A DNA stretch of 64,000 bases, taken from positions 6,944,001 through 7,008,000 of the forward strand of contig JASGJH010000001.1 of NCBI GenBank assembly GCA_047601445.1. Reading direction: 5' to 3'. The position numbers are program-made. Positions within the stretch are counted from its first letter, which is position 1. Each line of letters begins with the position of its first letter. Below, piece by piece: positions 36,001 through 42,000 of the stretch. This DNA is from Myxococcales bacterium (GTDB lineage: Bacteria; Myxococcota_A; Polyangia; Polyangiales; DASUME01).

Positions 36001-39000
36001 TTGGGTTTGCCGTGATGCGTGCGCAGGCAACGGCGCGTGCCCGAACAACGGCACATGCAGCGCCGGCTACTGCATTCCCCATCCGCAATGGGAGCTCGTG
36101 CGCGACGCGCCCGAGGAGCACGTGTGCGTCAGCAACGAGAACTGCGCCTCCGGAGTGTGCGACGACAACCTCTGCGGCGGATAGGCGGTGAGCGTGGATG
36201 GGGCCGGCGGAAAGGTCGCTTCCTATTCGTCCGAGCCTATCGGTGTCGGCTTCGGTCCGCTTCATCGGTTGCCATCGAAATGCGAGCCTCCGCCTGACCG
36301 CTTATCCCCTCAGCTGCTCCAGCACGCTGCGAAGCTCCCGCTCCAGCTCCCCAGCATCCCGATAGCGATCGGCGGGCTTCTTCGCGAGACAACGCAGCGT
36401 GAGTTGCTCCAGCGCCGGATGGACTTCGCTCGCTCCGCTCACGCTGGGCGGAGCGGGCGTCTGCGCTGCGTGCGCCAACAAGAGCGCGCCTGCCTCGCCG
36501 TGTTCGAAGGGGGGCCGCCCTGTCAGCAGGAAGTAGAGGACTCCGCCGAGCGCGTATACGTCGCTGCGGGCGTCAGCGGGTTGTCCGAGCGCGACTTCGG
36601 GCGAAACGTACTGGGGCGTCCCAACCATCCGCTCGCCGACGGTGAGAGAGTGCGCGACCTCTGCGTCCAGGAGCTTCGCGACCCCGAAGTCGAGCACCTT
36701 TACGAAGTCCGAGATGCCGCCCGCCTTGCAGACGAAGACATTGGCGGGCTTGATGTCGCGATGGATCACGCCCTGCTGGTGGGCTTCAGCCATCGCACCT
36801 GCCACCTGCAGCATGATATGCAAGCAACGATGCTGGTTTAGAGCTCCTTCCCTCAGGACCAGTGCGTTCAGGTCGTCGCCTTCGAGAAACTCCATCGCGT
36901 AGTACCAGAGGCCGTCCTCCGTTGCGCCGTAGTCGAAGATGCGCACGGTGTTCGGATGAGTGAGGCTCGTGGTGGCTTGAACTTCGCGTTCGAAGCGCTG
37001 CAATGCATGGGGGCTCGAGCGGTCCATCCGCATGATCTTCACCGCGACGTTGCGACGAAGAGTGGCATGGTGGGCCAACCAAACCTCACCCATGCCGCCA
37101 CGCCCGATACAGTGCATGAGGCGGTAGCGTCCGAGGTTGCGCGCGGCGAAGATCTGTCTGCGCAGGGCCCACACGGCGTGCCCGCCCGCCACGGTGTAGA
37201 AGAAGGCGGTGAAGACCAAACTGCTGTAGAAGTAAAACAGCGACAGGGCGGCCGGATCGTGGAGCTTGGCGGCAAGTTCGGGCGAGATCATCATCCCGAT
37301 GACCTGGGCGACCGGATACGAGAAGGCGGCCACGCCTCCAGAGATGAGACTCTGACGCCAGGGCACCGCGATGAAGGCGTTGCGAGACATCAACACGACT
37401 GGCAGGCCGGCTGCATAGGGCGAGGACATTCCCCCGGACATTACGCACATGGCCGAGATCGCCACGCCCGCAGACCCAAACGAATAGGCATCCAAGCGCG
37501 CCAGCGCTGCCGGCGTGGGCAACGGCGAGCGCCGCAGACGCCAGGCCACATACGGCGGAAAGAACCAGGCCAGGCCGCGCGCGACCACGTACCACCAGAA
37601 TTCTCCCGGGTGGATATAGGTGACCATGAGCCAGTCGCACAGAAAGAACGAAGGCCAGACGAAGCTCGCGATGTCGCCGACCTTTCTGAGCCGCAGCACG
37701 TTGGCCACGTGCTCCTCGTCAGAAAGCTTCTTCTCCATGTCGGCGCGTTCGCTGGAGCGGCGGTCTTCCACGCGCAGCGGAGAACCCGTGCTCATCTGGC
37801 CGGCGGCGGACTTGGCCACGTCGATAGAACGTGTGGGCTCGAGCTCTCCACAGGCGGCCAGGAGCTCCCGGGCGCTGGCGAAGCCGCCGGTCTCCGGGGC
37901 GCGGTCGGTCCGGCGTAGGGCCTCCACGAGGGGGGAGAGGACGTCCGGACGCTGCTCTTCCAAGCTGCGCGTGAGCTGGTCCAGATAGGCGGGCGTGGCG
38001 TCGTTCTCGACGATGCCCAGCAGGGCACGAGCGACCAACACGCCGATGGCTGTCAGATCGGCCTGGACGGCGCGTGGTGTCAGCGGAGTGCCGTGTCCTC
38101 CATGCTGGCCGGCCTGCTTGGAGACATCGATCTCTACGGCCAAGTGGCCAGAGGGGCGGGGCTTGCGTAGCCAAATCCGTGATAGCTCGGGGAGCACCGC
38201 TCGTTGCCCAGTGGCGTGGGCATTCATCGCGGCCATGGTCAGGCCGCGCAGGATCTGCACAGCTTCGGCGATGGTCAGGTGGCGCGTGCGTAAGAGCTCA
38301 TCGAGTGAGACCGCAGAGCTGCTTGGCGAGCCGTTTTCAGCAGGCGATTCGACTCCCGACACGCGGCGGATGATACGCGAGTCTCGCGCGCGAGCCTCGG
38401 CAATTCGAAACCACGACCAAACCCCTGGTGACCAGGCCGAAAGTCGGCAGGACTAGCGAGTGGCTCGCACTTTCGCGCGTGCATCGGCGGGTCGGACAGC
38501 TGCTGGCTCAACGCGGCTACCGCGGCCTACGTTGGGCTATGGGAGGCTTTCGGCGGCTTGCGGCAGTCGGCGCGCGAGCAGCGAATGAGTGCGGCGGACC
38601 GGCGTAGTGAGGGCCACGAGGCCTTTGACTACCATATGAAACTCGCTCCCCCGAGGTACGTCTGTTCGAGCGTGTCGTGAGCGAAATGATAGCGAACCGA
38701 CGAGTCCAGGTTGAGCGCGAACCAGTCCCGCACGTGAATGCGAATGAGCGGCTGGGGCCGGAGGCCCATGCTTTGCACCGAGCCCACGGCGAGCTGCACC
38801 GCCCCCTCGGGGCTGCGCCAGCTCTGATCCGCGAGCTCTCCCTCCCAGAGTTGATTCTGCGAGATGGAGAGCGCCAGATGAAACGTCACGGTGTCCGCGA
38901 GCGTGTGCGTGTAGCCCACGGCCGCGTGCACGCGCCAGGTGTTCGGGGGCGTCCAACGAGGCGGGTAGGCGCTCTCTGGGGAAGCGCTCAGGCGCGACTC

Positions 39001-42000
39001 GGCCGTCATCTGCGCCGGTTGCGGATTCACATCGTGATCGCCGGAGTCTCTGGCGATCCAACGCAGGCCAGAGCTAGCCCCCAGGCTGAAGTCGAATGAA
39101 GAGCGCTGCGAGATCCAACGGCGCAAGTCCACGCCAAAGGCCGGCTGCGCCGTGAGAATGAAACCAGCGAAGTTGTTGAACCCCATCCCCCAGCCCACGA
39201 TGCCGCCCCAGGGCAGCCACTCGAAGCCGCCGTGCTCCCCTCCGCGGTACGTGATGGCGAGCGTGGGAAGAACCCATTGCCAGCGGTCGGTGAGCCCGCG
39301 CGGTGCGAGCATCCCGAACGCGAAGTGGTTGTCGGTCGCGATGTTCATGCCGAGCGTCGACCCTTCCGTGACACCGAGCCAGCCCGTAATCTCCTGCATA
39401 CCCTTGGGGACCGTGGTGAGTGTCAGCGGCCGTGGCGCTCCATGCTTGACGGCAAGCAAACTCGAACCGACCAGCGAGAGACGCTCCTCGTCGATGTGCG
39501 TGGTCTGACCGGGCTCGACGGCGATCTCTTCCGCCCATACCTGACTGCCGCTACGGCGTCGCAGGAGGTAGCGCCCCGGCGCCACTGCCAGCTGCAGGCT
39601 TCGTTCGCCCTTTGGCAGCTCCAGCACCACCAGCCCGCTTCCCAGGTGCAGCAGTTCGAGCGGCCCCTGGCGCTGATCTACCGAGAGCAGCGCACCGGCA
39701 GCGTGCAGCGTCGCCAGTCGCAGGTCGTTGCGTCCGCGCAGCTGCATCGAGAAGCTCGGATGCTGCGGCGACGCCGTGTGGAGCGCCGTGTCGCGAATCG
39801 TCAAGGCTCGCGCATACTCGAAGGCCTCCGTCAGCATGACCTGACCATCGGCGTTGCGGTCGCCCGCTCCACGCAGGCCGGCAATCCAGTGATGTGTGAA
39901 GAACGAGCCGCCGAGCGCCTCGGACTCGTGCGCGTCCTCGAGACCCGAGCTCGAGGCGATCAACACCGATCCCTCACTCGAGAGCGCCGTCGGCAGGTCG
40001 ACTTCGAACAGCTCGGTCTCGTTCAGCCCCTTGGCCCCCGTCCATCCCCCGCCGCGGCAAGCGTCGATGATGCCGATGCGCACACTCACCTTGGGGCTTT
40101 GCAGGCGTGCGCGCAGATCCGCGAGCGCGAGGGGACGTCCCGCAGGATAGAGCGAGGTCGTATCGGCGTGCCCCGAGTAGTAGAAGAGCAACAGGGCTTC
40201 TCGATCCTGCGCATGCACACGCTCGAGCTGGGCATCCAGCGCGCGCAGGACGGCAGCCGGATCGGGGTCGAGCAGCACGTTCACGTCGGATGGCGCAAAA
40301 CCTCCGAGCTCGACCAGCACCCTGCCCACGGCTTCGGCATCGTCTCGCGCATAGCGAAGCGCCTTGCGACCCGGCGCTGCGGCGTTGGCTCCAATGACGA
40401 GCGCCATGCGGCGCGGGCCACCGGCAGCGGAGGGGTCGGCGCGGACGATGCTCGCAGTGACCGACTGCACGCACGCCAGCAAGACGAGCGAGGCGAGCGC
40501 GCGCACGACTTTCCGGTTCACTTGGCAGCTCCTCGCTTGGGGAAATTCAAGCGCACAACCCATACTTCGCCCGGGTCGTGCGCGCGCAGAAGCTCCTGGG
40601 CTGCGAGCGGGGAGATCTCCCAGCGCGAGAGCATGACTGCGATCTGCTCTGCCCCTGGCGCCGCATCGAGCTCCCATGCCTTGGGCAGCATGGACAACGT
40701 TCGCGGCGGCAGCCGTCCTGTGTAGAGCAACTTCGGAACGGCCTCCTGCGTGGCCACGTTGAAGACGGACACATGACTGAACTCTTCGGGCATGATCTGC
40801 AGGCGGATGCGATCACCCGCGACGAGCGGCGCGCCGTCCCACAAGCCACTCACGCCCTCGTGCTGCACGTACACCCCCACGGCCGGCGCGCCCTTCACGC
40901 CGTCGTAGCTCGGGTCCACGTCCTTGGGACGCAGAATCGCGAGGCTCACCGCGGCAGCCAGGGCTAACGCCCCTACCGTCCACAAGCGCCGGGGTCGTGT
41001 GCGCGGCACCGTCTTCCCAGGCGTCCGTACAGACAGCGCAGCGCGCTCCTCGAGCCAGGCCGGCACCGCACCCGTTGGTTGGTGGCTCGCGACGTACGCG
41101 CGGCAGCGCGCACAGTCGGCCAGGTGGTTGGCCGTAGCCACACCCGAGCTGGCCCCCAACACATGCCGGTCGAGCTCCAGGTATGAAGGATGAAGGGTCG
41201 CATCGCTCATCGTTCACTCCTCGTGCGCAGGCGCACCGCGCGCTCCTCGAACCTCACCAACAAACGCCGCACGCTGCGCTCGTGGATTCCGAGCACCTCG
41301 GCAATCTCTTGCTGTTTCAGGCCATCCACATGACTGAGCAGGGCCGCCGAGAGTTCGTCCTCGGGCAACCGGCGAACGAGCTCGGCCCACATCCCCGCGA
41401 ACAGAGCCTGCCTCTCTGGAGAAGCCTGGCTAGAAAGACTGTCGAAGGCGTGGTCTTCGGAGACGAGCCGTGCGCGCGACCGCAAGCGGTCCACGGCCAG
41501 CCGCGTGCTGGTGCGGTACAGCCAGGCGGTCACCCGACGGGGGTCATCGAGCGCGATCCCAGCGTCATGGAGCCGGAGGAACGCCTCCTGGGCGACGTCC
41601 TCCGCCTCGTGCCCGTCCCCGAGCATGCGGGCGCACTTGCGGACGAGGAGGGGGAAGTAGAGACGGTACGCGTGGATGAGCTCGGAAGGCATGCAGAAAG
41701 AGGCGCCTTGCGGGCGCATGGTGAAAGACGACGCAGGACATGCAAACCGGACAAAAAAGGTGAAGGAGCCTGCTCCCCGGTCGGTCTTTCACCCCAAGCG
41801 CATGTAATCAGCTCGTGCCTACGTCCGATCACGGGCTCCACGACGTGCACGTCGTCCGAGGCGGACCAAATGGCGGGCTCAGCCTTTGGAACTCCGCAAT
41901 CACGGCCCCTTCACGCGCGGACTGGCAAGTACCGACCCCAAGCCAGCGCAAAGCGCCGCCTCGAGCGGTGGCGTCACGATACGCGTCTCCACGGCGCCCA

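Follow-up and report, generated by a model that had tools for sequence, protein, structure and literature searches.

DdvA, an anti-sigma factor of M. xanthus that itself carries a periplasmic caspase-family (CHAT) domain, would by analogy provide a precedent for caspase-family cleavage of an anti-sigma linker. PMC11506125 proposes that this domain cuts DdvA's own juxtamembrane linker ahead of RseP, with RseP dependence shown for truncated DdvA. Operons combining sigma factors and metacaspases were already noted by Asplund-Samuelsson 2012, and because they have been in print since then the sigma/metacaspase operon itself is not new. Neither the outer-membrane barrel nor the dedicated anti-sigma factor of the cassette described here was found in the searchable literature.

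Operon layout and promoter

Within the window, the 64,000-nucleotide stretch of the genome of a soil Myxococcales bacterium analysed here, lies a three-gene operon on the minus strand at 38629–41750 (Table 1). Re-reading the ORFs returned all three at the coordinates given in the genome-wide survey's note, and the order that it proposed, sigma factor, anti-sigma factor and caspase, is borne out by domain matches and by stop/start overlaps read directly from the sequence: ATGA joins the sigma stop to the anti-sigma start, and GTGA the anti-sigma stop to the caspase start, with GGAG 8 nt upstream of the GTG.

Table 1 Features of the operon, with positions counted from the first letter of the window
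Feature	Position	Strand	Basis
Terminator-like hairpin then T run, just upstream of promoter	41763..41778	-	Simple consensus scan
ECF-type promoter: CCGGTT (-35 part), 14-nt spacer, CGTCTT (-10 part)	41725..41750	-	Family motif and PWM
ECF sigma factor, 170-aa ORF	41207..41719	-	Sigma70_r2 (E 1.2e-15), Sigma70_r4_2 (E 3.6e-10), TIGR02937 sigma70-ECF (E 4.9e-21)
Single-pass zinc-finger (ZAS-type) anti-sigma factor, 230 aa, ATG start	40518..41210	-	ORF, zinc motif, synteny
Zinc-binding motif H29-x3-C33-x2-C36 of anti-sigma domain	41103..41126	-	H29, C33 and C36 invariant in 46/46
Anti-sigma transmembrane helix, about residues 76–93	40932..40985	-	Hydropathy and AF2
K106-G107, candidate site-1 cleavage site in flexible juxtamembrane linker	40890..40895	-	Conservation and low pLDDT
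Periplasmic Ig-like β-sandwich of anti-sigma factor, residues 107–230	40521..40892	-	AF2
Caspase/β-sandwich/outer-membrane-barrel protein, 630 aa, GTG start	38629..40521	-	ORF, Peptidase_C14, AF2, fold search
Sec signal peptide, residues 1–29, probable cleavage VRA/DP	40435..40521	-	N-termini of 50 relatives
Caspase-fold protease domain, residues 36–274	39700..40416	-	PF00656, fold match, invariant residues
H118	40168–40170	-	Invariant catalytic residue
C155	40057–40059	-	Invariant catalytic residue
Conserved loop after catalytic Cys, residues 156–184; candidate autoprocessing or regulatory loop	39970..40056	-	Low pLDDT and high identity
K164-G165 of post-Cys loop	40027–40032	-	Conservation
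β-sandwich domain, residues 275–353	39463..39699	-	Strands in AF2 model, block pLDDT 91–97
Linker, residues 354–375, 3-residue helical turn only	39397..39462	-	DSSP and pLDDT
12-stranded outer-membrane β-barrel, residues 376–630, ending ...GGASFIW	38632..39396	-	Fold match to KdgM

The trio is widespread. Among 80 related loci, 75 have a homologous anti-sigma ORF immediately before the caspase and 71 have a same-strand sigma gene upstream (7 of the other 9 have less than 900 bp of DNA on that side); near two related caspase-barrel genes, L018 and L026, sigma and anti-sigma factors are absent. Four Peptidase_C14 genes occur in the genome, at the sites that the survey had listed. The order sigma, anti-sigma, caspase is kept at 4.30 Mb and at 6.61 Mb, and the 6.61 Mb protein ends, as described earlier, in membrane segments, four hydrophobic transmembrane helices taking the place of the barrel. 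At the fourth paralog (g05119, 6.20 Mb) the gene order differs; a sigma gene lies two genes downstream and the protein ends in Trp, in line with the spacing and the aromatic C-terminal residue given by the survey, and the barrel assigned to its tail is to be read as a feature-based lead rather than a fold.

Preceding the operon is a putative promoter that can be read as TGGCCGGATT-N13-CGTCTT and is conserved. Of 71 regions upstream of related operons, 42 contain the pattern CCGG[AT]T-N14-CGT[CT], against 0.016 matches expected per region, and the spacer is invariably 14 in a search that permitted 13–15; the window contains one match (0.01 expected). In a scan of the 9.5 Mb genome with a PWM built from the 42 sites, the operon's own among them, the operon promoter ranked first at 28.6 bits and the runner-up reached 13.6; no other strong hit for the family motif occurs in the genome. 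The promoter stops 5 nt short of the ATG at 41719, and because its -10 element lies so close, the true start of the sigma factor may be the ATG at 41692 (Met10). The hairpin, one of four found in the region by a scan for which 1.7 are expected, probably marks where the transcription unit before the operon ends.

The caspase-barrel protein

The third gene encodes a protein for which an independent AF2 model, computed from 50 sequences chosen from at least 120 relatives (mean pLDDT 86.5, and at least 90 for 400 of the 630 residues), reproduces the domain order proposed by the survey: signal peptide, caspase fold with a His-Cys dyad, β-sandwich and 12-stranded barrel. We consider this architecture of the cassette, as modelled, highly probable. 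The N-termini of 50 relatives end for the most part in Ala-x-Ala-type sites, and since a lipobox pattern occurs in only 7 of them, LLAC17 of the window protein is probably a chance lipobox-like match.

Peptidase_C14 (PF00656) covers residues 37–230 (E 9.7e-13; bit score 48.8, where the cut-off is 21.4). In a fold search of 48,161 PDB chains, the matches reported earlier were recovered from our own alignment: residues 36–274 match metacaspase 4 (6w8r; Z 20.5, r.m.s.d. 2.8, 201 aligned), and also caspase-9 (Z 19.2), and residues 376–630 match KdgM (4pr7; Z 17.2, r.m.s.d. 1.9, 159 aligned). The claimed invariance of H118 and C155 holds in 50 of 50 sequences, and D61 and D153 are likewise invariant in the relatives. 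In the metacaspase LxGCxND motif, the Asp is the residue that aligns with D61, and D153 precedes the Cys by two positions, as does D211 in TbMC2, for which PMC8283722 names D95 and D211 as residues binding basic substrates. Judged from these residues, the protease looks active and basic-specific, and would probably cut after Lys or Arg at P1.

Following the catalytic Cys is a loop in which residues 157–175 have pLDDT below 50, yet whose mean column identity over residues 156–184 is 0.73. It contains the motif T-G-[AT]-K164-G165, with a basic residue at 164 and Gly at 165 in all 50 sequences.

An N-terminal globular enzyme with a C-terminal 12-stranded barrel is the type Va layout, and the barrels of EstA (Z 16.6), NalP (Z 15.6), AIDA-I, BrkA and Hbp match at Z 14.7–16.6; the barrel might, as in EstA or NalP, carry the caspase and the β-sandwich out onto the cell surface. 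We regard this as very unlikely. Among barrels, the porin KdgM scores highest, ahead of those of autotransporters (NanC also matches, at Z 15.9), and Pfam barrel families, Autotransporter included, give no match to the protein at E ≤ 1. No helix occupies the barrel lumen in the model, in agreement with the survey, and the 22-residue linker, which has the conserved consensus PRPxTxSTLPxG, is without a helix beyond its 3-residue turn. At 38 of the 80 related loci the tail is non-homologous to the barrel (phmmer E ≤ 1e-3); measured tails are mostly 99–206 aa, and would therefore be too short for passage of a passenger, and the helices of the 6.61 Mb paralog are equally at odds with export. A surface protease would also leave the dedicated periplasmic domain of the anti-sigma factor out of reach.

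By their features, the short tails look like small barrels of the outer membrane (DUF3575/PagL at 0.97, and OMP_b-brl). Because relatives replace the barrel with such unrelated, short, barrel-like tails, a periplasm-facing protease anchored in the outer membrane is favoured as the predicted topology. In the model, the long and poorly conserved barrel loops (490–528, identity 0.18, and 560–592) fall where the outer loops of a barrel with a periplasmic start are expected, and the C-terminal residue is Trp or Phe in 45 of 50 relatives.

The anti-sigma factor and its pairing with caspases

Upstream of the caspase is the anti-sigma factor, whose relatives match zf-HC2 in 16 of 46 cases; a Pfam search with the window's own protein gave no match. 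Its hydropathy maximum (2.22) is at residue 76, and AF2 places a helix at 79–92. The model has a pLDDT of 84.9 overall and of 89–98 per block inside the Ig-like domain, for which the best PDB match is weak (9ard_B, the AGS-C Ig-like domain; Z 8.2). A profile comparison of this domain with all parts of the protease found no relation.

In the genome, which has 106 Sigma70_r2 matches, an HMM of the Ig-like domain matched 3 of 87,707 six-frame ORFs, all three beside caspases. Across 37 other Myxococcota genomes with the domain, it has 61 matches, of which 54 are followed on the same strand, within 800 bp, by a Peptidase_C14 match. The periplasmic domain of the anti-sigma factor is dedicated, almost exclusively, to caspase neighbours, and we think it likely, with good confidence, that anti-sigma factor and caspase are a dedicated functional pair.

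Between the membrane and the Ig-like domain is the segment [VT]-x-[AV]-K106-G107, where the block pLDDT is 63–68, against 97 in the domain that follows. Residue 106 is basic in 46 of 46 sequences (43 Lys, 3 Arg) and residue 107 is Gly in 41 and Ala in 5, a pattern that makes K106-G107 a candidate cleavage site. The exclusive pairing could instead reflect docking or inhibition, the Ig-like domain binding the caspase uncut and either inhibiting it in trans or letting newly made protease stabilize the anti-sigma factor, in a negative feedback; the translational coupling of the two genes, which favours near-equal synthesis, would suit this. Such a role seems rather improbable, as the domain is a generic Ig-like fold without a match to a known protease inhibitor, and K106, which is conserved more strongly than any other periplasmic residue, lies outside it.

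A basic-Gly dipeptide is kept in flexible segments of both proteins, the post-Cys loop of the protease and the juxtamembrane linker of the anti-sigma factor. At the 66 loci readable for both, the anti-sigma/caspase residues are K/K in 63 and R/R in 2; Arg in the anti-sigma factor with Lys in the caspase occurs once, and the reverse never. The change from Lys to Arg in both proteins together counts as a single event, because L016 and L023 fall into one clade with L018 (support 0.95). A two-residue motif common to two proteins can be chance, and K106-G107, just before the first strand of the Ig-like domain, could be conserved for structural reasons.

A possible site-1 protease for its own anti-sigma factor

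The reading that we favour over the others, though with limited confidence, is that the caspase is a dedicated site-1 protease cutting its own anti-sigma factor. With K106-G107 about 13 residues away from the inner membrane and the protease anchored in the outer one, reach across the periplasm is not assured.

This distant tether would favour a protease that is output only, the Ig-like domain sensing another envelope signal and the caspase being a sigma-driven effector with no action on the anti-sigma factor. Co-transcribed from the genome's only strong family-promoter match, the caspase is certainly an output, and the confinement of strong matches to its own operon fits a mere regulated output equally well. 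Proteins of the periplasm or the outer membrane might, for instance, be degraded by such an effector in stress, predation, development or autolysis; Asplund-Samuelsson 2012 suggests myxobacterial metacaspases as possible autolytic enzymes. We nevertheless judge an output-only role somewhat unlikely, since it leaves unexplained both the near-exclusive association of the Ig-like domain with caspases and the basic-Gly motif kept, and once co-changed, in the two proteins.

If the caspase does act as the site-1 protease, the zinc-finger anti-sigma factor would hold the ECF sigma factor at the inner membrane, its small Ig-like domain being joined to the membrane helix on the periplasmic side by a short, flexible tether, and the translationally coupled third gene would supply the Sec-exported caspase/metacaspase-fold protease. 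Once activated by a signal, the protease would cut the tether at Lys106-Gly107, leaving a 13-residue stub open to an RseP-type intramembrane protease, which would presumably release the sigma factor. The freed sigma factor would transcribe its own operon from the promoter described above, and the additional protease would provide positive feedback. The cassette would then be a self-contained, autoregulated envelope-signalling unit.

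Architecture of the operon

The cassette is a minus-strand operon of three ORFs that overlap at their stop and start codons. The junction between the sigma factor and anti-sigma factor genes is ATGA, and the GTG start of the caspase gene overlaps the anti-sigma stop codon (GTGA), with GGAG 8 nt upstream. The first product, of 170 aa, belongs with the ECF (group 4) sigma factors by its match to TIGR02937 (75.1 bits, cut-off 42.9). Its ATG lies only 5 nt past the −10 element of the promoter match; because the promoter ends so close to this codon, the true start may be Met10, and the mRNA may be either leaderless or translated from that residue. 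Downstream of the caspase gene is a gene for a Ser/Thr protein kinase, whose kinase domain also matches the PADLOC PD-T4-6 models, as generic kinase domains do.

Coordinates of the cassette, of adjoining elements and of two paralogous loci (L003, the fourth paralog, G000 6194000-6206000; L002, the paralog at 6.61 Mb, G000 6606000-6618000; G000 is this genome)
Feature	Sequence	Position	Strand	Remarks
Promoter match	window	41725-41750	-	sole match in the window, against 0.01 expected; just past a terminator-like hairpin
ECF sigma factor ORF	window	41207-41719	-	Sigma70_r2 E 1.2e-15, Sigma70_r4_2 E 3.6e-10
Sigma factor start, ATG (41719) to Met10 (41692)	window	41692-41719	-	
Anti-sigma factor ORF, 230 aa	window	40518-41210	-	H29-x3-C33-x2-C36, one hydrophobic helix at about 76-93, C-terminal domain
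H-P-S of the anti-sigma factor (residues 7-9)	window	41190-41210	-	nearly invariant
Caspase-barrel ORF, 630 aa	window	38629-40521	-	Peptidase_C14 48.8 bits, cut-off 21.4
EF-hand-like loop, D221-E232	window	39826-39861	-	D-R-N-x-D-G-x-V-x-x-x-E
Q-H-P-S of the caspase (residues 253-256)	window	39751-39765	-	invariant
Ser/Thr protein kinase, 686 aa	window	36302-38362	-	Pkinase E 6.9e-48; 267 bp downstream of the caspase gene
Caspase	L003	5196-6935	+	
Cys-rich protein, 487 aa	L003	6957-8420	+	weak Dickkopf_N match
Sigma factor	L003	7934-8908	+	
192-aa protein	L003	8987-9565	+	one transmembrane helix, then an H-V-K-G-G motif and a beta-rich tail; no H-x3-C-x2-C in the ORF as called
Caspase	L002	5727-7670	+	YAGHGD and LDSCNS active-site motifs

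The caspase domain

Of 8000 scored candidates, 835 proteins count as relatives of the caspase-barrel protein at E <= 0.001, and the alignment used for fold prediction holds 50 sequences taken from 120 listed relatives. The AlphaFold2 model built on it has a mean pLDDT of 86.5, with 400 of the 630 residues at 90 or above. Compared with 48,161 PDB chains, residues 36-274 of the model are most like metacaspase 4 (6w8r; Z 20.5, rmsd 2.8, 201 residues aligned) and also match caspases and MALT1 (Z 17-19.7); Foldseek agrees on this part. The Peptidase_C14 match (PF00656, residues 37-230) places the protein in family C14 by sequence, and the predicted structure has the caspase-hemoglobinase fold. PADLOC assigns only its generic 'caspase' model to the protease (E 1.3e-06), and none of its known defence systems matches the sigma factor or the anti-sigma factor.

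The catalytic dyad, H118 (SGHAD) and C155 (DACRG), is invariant in all 50 sequences, as are D61 and D153, the latter two residues before the catalytic cysteine. A profile search of the PDB aligned L-R-Y-A-x-D61-A with the L-x-G-C-x-N-D motif of metacaspases 9, 4 and 1, so that D61 takes the place of the motif's Asp in AtMC9, AtMC4 and Yca1. We take D211 of TbMC2 to sit, like D153, two residues before the cysteine. According to the available text of PMC8283722, D95 and D211 of TbMC2 bind basic substrates, and the characterised non-animal caspase homologues favour basic P1 residues. Because D61 and D153 match the two acidic residues of TbMC2, and given this stated P1 preference, the protease would be expected to cut after Lys or Arg.

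The loop that follows the catalytic cysteine (residues 156-184) is modelled with a pLDDT below 50, yet its mean column identity is 0.73; position 164 (K164) is basic and position 165 is Gly in 50/50 sequences. This region presumably corresponds to the inter-subunit linker of caspases and metacaspases, the site of their self-processing. Elsewhere in the domain is an EF-hand-like loop (D221-E232), which, as we understand the PROSITE EF-hand pattern, does not fit it in full. Its D221, D225 and E232 are invariant in the 50 relatives, and the loop could be a Ca2+ site, a candidate of interest because metacaspases are described as Ca2+-dependent in the available text of PMC8283722.

A barrel that probably serves as a membrane anchor

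The C-terminal part of the model (residues 376-630) is a barrel of 12 strands that most resembles the KdgM porin (4pr7; Z 17.2, rmsd 1.9, 159 residues aligned, 8% identity), followed by EstA (3kvn, Z 16.6), NanC (15.9), AIDA-I (15.7) and NalP (1uyo, 15.6). The genome-wide survey's note had described the protein as a caspase fold with an H118-C155 dyad joined to a 12-stranded, KdgM-like barrel; both halves were recovered here, and its Z values returned to within about one unit. In Pfam only Peptidase_C14 matched at E <= 1, leaving neither a KdgM/NanC family assignment nor an Autotransporter (PF03797) match, and the likeness to KdgM is one of fold only.

Twelve modelled strands, a signal peptide and a terminal tryptophan, W630, identify an outer-membrane barrel. 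The chain ends in W or F in 45 of 50 relatives, an aromatic end of the kind that commonly acts as the C-terminal signal in outer-membrane proteins. At their N-termini the 50 relatives carry Sec signal peptides of the ordinary kind, which in most cases end in Ala-x-Ala-type sites; a lipoprotein reading of LLAC17 was rejected, the lipobox pattern being found in only 7/50.

Preceding the barrel is a linker of 22 residues (354-375), in which the model places only a three-residue helical turn (365-367); a helix through the barrel lumen, as type Va autotransporters have, is therefore absent from the predicted structure. The modelled strands begin at residues 376-384. Odd-numbered strands are followed by two long loops of low model confidence, 490-528 (column identity 0.18) and 560-592; in a barrel that begins on the periplasmic side, these positions are extracellular.

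When one genome per species was scanned, 411 loci with a relative of the caspase-barrel protein emerged, and the best 80 of them were retained. At 38 of the 80, the tail is not homologous to the barrel of the window (phmmer E <= 1e-3). Most of the tails measured at 31 related loci span 99-206 aa, with outliers of 69, 260 and 305 aa, and many of the short ones end in ...GVAF or ...WHFL. A subset of 15 short tails aligned with the 12-stranded barrel at an hhalign probability of 19%, and one of the 15 has a weak OMP_b-brl match in Pfam (E 0.024); given these two results, the signs that short tails are barrels are leads only. By its features, one short tail is nearest to clusters of DUF3575 in which Autotransporter or PagL families are present as well (score 0.97), and the tail of the fourth paralog in this genome resembles OMP_b-brl/Opacity clusters. 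A search for stand-alone barrels returned three short proteins; each comes from a contig of 1.9-3.7 kb and is probably a fragment.

At the paralogous locus L002, whose active site is more metacaspase-like, four C-terminal hydrophobic helices (residues 453-606) replace the barrel. Because the barrel tails vary among relatives and one paralog has helices, what the relatives share is an anchor in the membrane, not one given channel. A folded passenger would presumably not fit through barrels this short. Together, the missing lumen helix, the placement of the loops and the exchangeable short tails make it probable that the caspase faces the periplasm.

The anti-sigma factor

Residues H29, C33 and C36 are invariant in all 46 aligned anti-sigma sequences; zf-HC2 matches 16 of these relatives, and the window protein itself is without a Pfam match. 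The AlphaFold2 model (pLDDT 84.9 overall) has helices at residues 10-61 and a transmembrane helix at 79-92. This arrangement, an N-terminal helical H-x3-C-x2-C domain followed by a single transmembrane helix, is that of the class I zinc-binding (ZAS) anti-sigma factors. The periplasmic part is predicted to be an immunoglobulin-like (Ig-like) sandwich of 124 residues, with a pLDDT of 89-98 per block in residues 111-220 and generic matches in the PDB (best Z 8.2).

Two identities were considered for this domain. As a paralog of the sandwich of the protease it gave an hhalign probability of 2% and a 9-column HPS match only, and the idea was therefore dropped. DUF4384, which we take to be a caspase-associated domain, was not established, with weak matches in 2/46 relatives (best E 0.029). 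The H-P-S near the N-terminus of the anti-sigma factor, which hhalign aligns with the Q-H-P-S of the caspase at that same 2% probability, is probably a chance likeness. Complex prediction for the caspase and sandwich (residues 30-360) with anti-sigma residues 96-230 gave an ipSAE of 0.00 in two runs without controls and counts neither way.

An anti-sigma domain dedicated to its caspase neighbour

Among the best 80 of the 411 loci, a sigma factor gene lies upstream on the same strand in 71, and seven of the nine loci that lack one have under 900 bp of upstream DNA. A homologue of the window anti-sigma factor (E 1e-22 to 1e-79) lies between sigma factor and caspase, or directly 5' of the caspase, in 75/80. 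Two related caspase-barrel genes, L018 and L026, are true orphans, with no sigma or anti-sigma gene in the 2.8 kb and 5.9 kb upstream of them, respectively. The fourth paralog (L003) belongs to a different module, in which the caspase gene comes first and those for the Cys-rich protein, a sigma factor and the 192-aa protein follow.

The Ig-like domain itself is far more restricted than sigma factors are in this genome, where Sigma70_r2 has 106 matches: an HMM of the domain finds only three matches in the 87,707 six-frame ORFs of the 9.5 Mb sequence, all of them anti-sigma genes adjoining caspases. It is held by 37 of 120 other sampled Myxococcota genomes (38 of 121 with this one). In those 37 genomes, Peptidase_C14 follows within 800 bp downstream on the same strand for at least 54 of 61 occurrences, a lower bound because 150 of the 168 C14 matches are listed. 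With all three occurrences here and at least 54 of 61 elsewhere adjoining C14, the sensor domain of the anti-sigma factor is dedicated to its caspase neighbour. The cassette is common, often with several copies per genome. The survey's note had interpreted the locus as a caspase-barrel protein encoded behind a sigma/anti-sigma pair, and folds, gene order and recurrence all bear it out.

This dedicated domain is the strongest argument that protease and anti-sigma factor work on each other. The main rival explanation, that the protease is a mere product of the sigma switch and acts on nothing within it, we consider somewhat less likely.

A promoter motif strongly matched only by the operon itself

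The pattern CCGG[AT]T-N14-CGT[CT] occurs in 42 of 71 regions (270 nt) upstream of sigma factor genes, against a background of 105 matches in 1.83 Mb, or 0.016 per region. Its spacer is always 14, with 13-15 allowed, and the consensus reads TGGCCGGATT-N13-CGTCTT. Scored with a weight matrix across the whole genome, the site in front of the operon reaches 28.6 bits and the next best 13.6, the former value being somewhat inflated as this site is among the 42 from which the matrix was built. The motif was not seen upstream of the two paralogous modules of this genome. Because the strong match genome-wide is that of its own operon, the cassette looks autoregulated and insulated, and the operon looks to be the sole evident target of its sigma factor.

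A candidate cleavage site and the proposed mechanism

Across the 46 sequences, conservation reaches 90% or more at only four positions in the periplasmic part of the anti-sigma factor. One of the four is Lys106, which sits not in the folded domain but in the tether that joins the membrane helix to the first strand (block pLDDT 63-68). The position is basic in 46/46, and the next residue is Gly in 41 and Ala in 5. The surrounding [VT]-x-[AV]-K-G resembles the T-G-[AT]-K-G of the protease's own loop. At 66 loci where both sites could be read, the pair is K/K in 63 and R/R in two, with one combination of anti-sigma R and protease K and none of the reverse. Both R/R loci form one clade with the orphan L018 (support 0.95) and thus count as one co-change, not two.

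If the anti-sigma factor were cut after K106, a periplasmic stub of about 13 residues would remain; by analogy with RseA and with experiments on truncated DdvA, it may be short enough for an RseP-type protease. The best-supported mechanism, which we put forward tentatively, is that the protease removes the periplasmic domain of the anti-sigma factor within a dedicated, autoregulated module.

A stronger version, which we think rather improbable, is a self-amplifying periplasmic caspase switch in which the anti-sigma factor is cut by the protease of its own cassette, and the sigma factor, once released, drives transcription of essentially nothing but the operon. The protease would then probably also cut its own loop at the shared basic-Gly site. 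Since so little besides the operon would be transcribed, one triggering event would commit the cell to a state with a high caspase level. If true, such a switch would be a bacterial counterpart of the caspase activation cascade, with transcription and regulated intramembrane proteolysis as its components. Its gate could be the distance between the membranes or the assembly state of the barrel.

Comparison with known systems

Sigma factors and metacaspases have been found together before. In M. xanthus DK 1622, four of five metacaspases lie in operons with a sigma factor, and the arrangement also occurs in Anaeromyxobacter, Haliangium and Sorangium and is reported for Ralstonia and Fibrobacter (PMC3501461, Asplund-Samuelsson et al. 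2012). As far as the main text of that paper describes them, the cassette represents the same association as these sigma-70-family/metacaspase operons. That main text contains neither 'anti-sigma' nor 'porin', its single 'outer membrane' concerns OmpA domains in operons, and neither a fusion to a barrel nor a promoter, a mechanism or an anti-sigma domain of the dedicated kind is described in it.

Of the systems studied so far, DdvS/DdvA of M. xanthus comes closest. DdvS is an ECF sigma factor, and its anti-sigma factor DdvA, of the zinc-finger, single-pass type, carries a periplasmic TPR-CHAT domain of the caspase family; self-cleavage in the juxtamembrane linker (site 1) ahead of RseP is proposed, and RseP dependence was shown for truncated DdvA (available text of PMC11506125). 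Common to both is a myxobacterial ECF/zinc-finger pair wired to a periplasmic caspase-family protease. In DdvA, as described in that text, the CHAT domain is part of the anti-sigma factor itself, in a periplasmic stretch of some 900 residues, and its target is the partner protomer, whereas in the cassette the protease is a separate Peptidase_C14 protein with an outer-membrane anchor, and the anti-sigma factor has only its 124-residue Ig-like domain. The DdvS regulon is given there as a CBASS/CRISPR island; the cassette promoter is matched only by its own operon. With the caspase domain encoded by a gene of its own and not fused to the anti-sigma factor, the cassette is a split form of DdvS/DdvA.

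In the RpoE-RseA system, a single-pass anti-sigma factor is removed by the periplasmic site-1 protease DegS and then by the intramembrane site-2 protease RseP. DegS, a PDZ serine protease of the inner membrane, has its gene elsewhere and becomes active when it meets the C-termini of unfolded outer-membrane proteins. This regulated proteolysis is described in the portion of the supplement available for PMC7826278. The candidate site-1 enzyme here differs from DegS in being a clan CD cysteine protease, in having its gene within the operon, and in belonging to the outer-membrane proteins itself.

Cell-surface signalling of the FecI-FecR-FecA type links an outer-membrane barrel with a periplasmic N-terminal domain to an ECF sigma factor by way of an anti-sigma factor in the inner membrane. 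The cassette follows a similar three-part logic, with an outer-membrane protein under the control of its own sigma factor. Its periplasmic domain, however, is an enzyme and not a signalling domain, and none of the three proteins has a TonB-dependent receptor, plug or FecR match in Pfam. Like the type Va autotransporters EstA and NalP, the protein has an N-terminal enzyme and a C-terminal 12-stranded barrel; unlike them, it has no predicted helix in the lumen and no Autotransporter family match, and its barrel is exchangeable for unrelated short tails.

Compared by group description only, the window sigma factor may belong to ECF216, a group confined to Myxococcales whose anti-sigma factor, at +1, is of the zinc-finger, one-helix type and in whose context a carboxypeptidase-regulatory-like domain occurs (PMC7826278). 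ECF54 has CHAT proteases in its context and is proposed to be protease-regulated (available text of PMC7826278 and PMC8999054). The terms 'Caspase', 'Peptidase_C14' and 'PF00656' do not occur in the main text and the available part of the supplement of the ECF classification 2.0 (PMC7826278). No published description of the cassette was found in the literature searched, which lay outside subscription journals. The cassette builds on two known themes, the control of anti-sigma factors by regulated proteolysis and the caspase homologues of bacteria.

Significance

Pairs of ECF sigma and anti-sigma factors are a main route by which bacteria pass signals across the envelope. To our knowledge, the triggers of only a minority of them have been established. 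A sensor domain that occurs almost only beside an outer-membrane caspase offers a concrete and testable trigger, namely cleavage after one named lysine. The sigma/anti-sigma/caspase cassette is widespread, and were the mechanism to hold, a bacterial C14 caspase homologue would for the first time have an assigned role in signal transduction. The cassette would then stand as a split counterpart to the DdvA model, and its protease would be one of the rare enzymes that a barrel, in place of a lipid, holds at the periplasmic face of the outer membrane.
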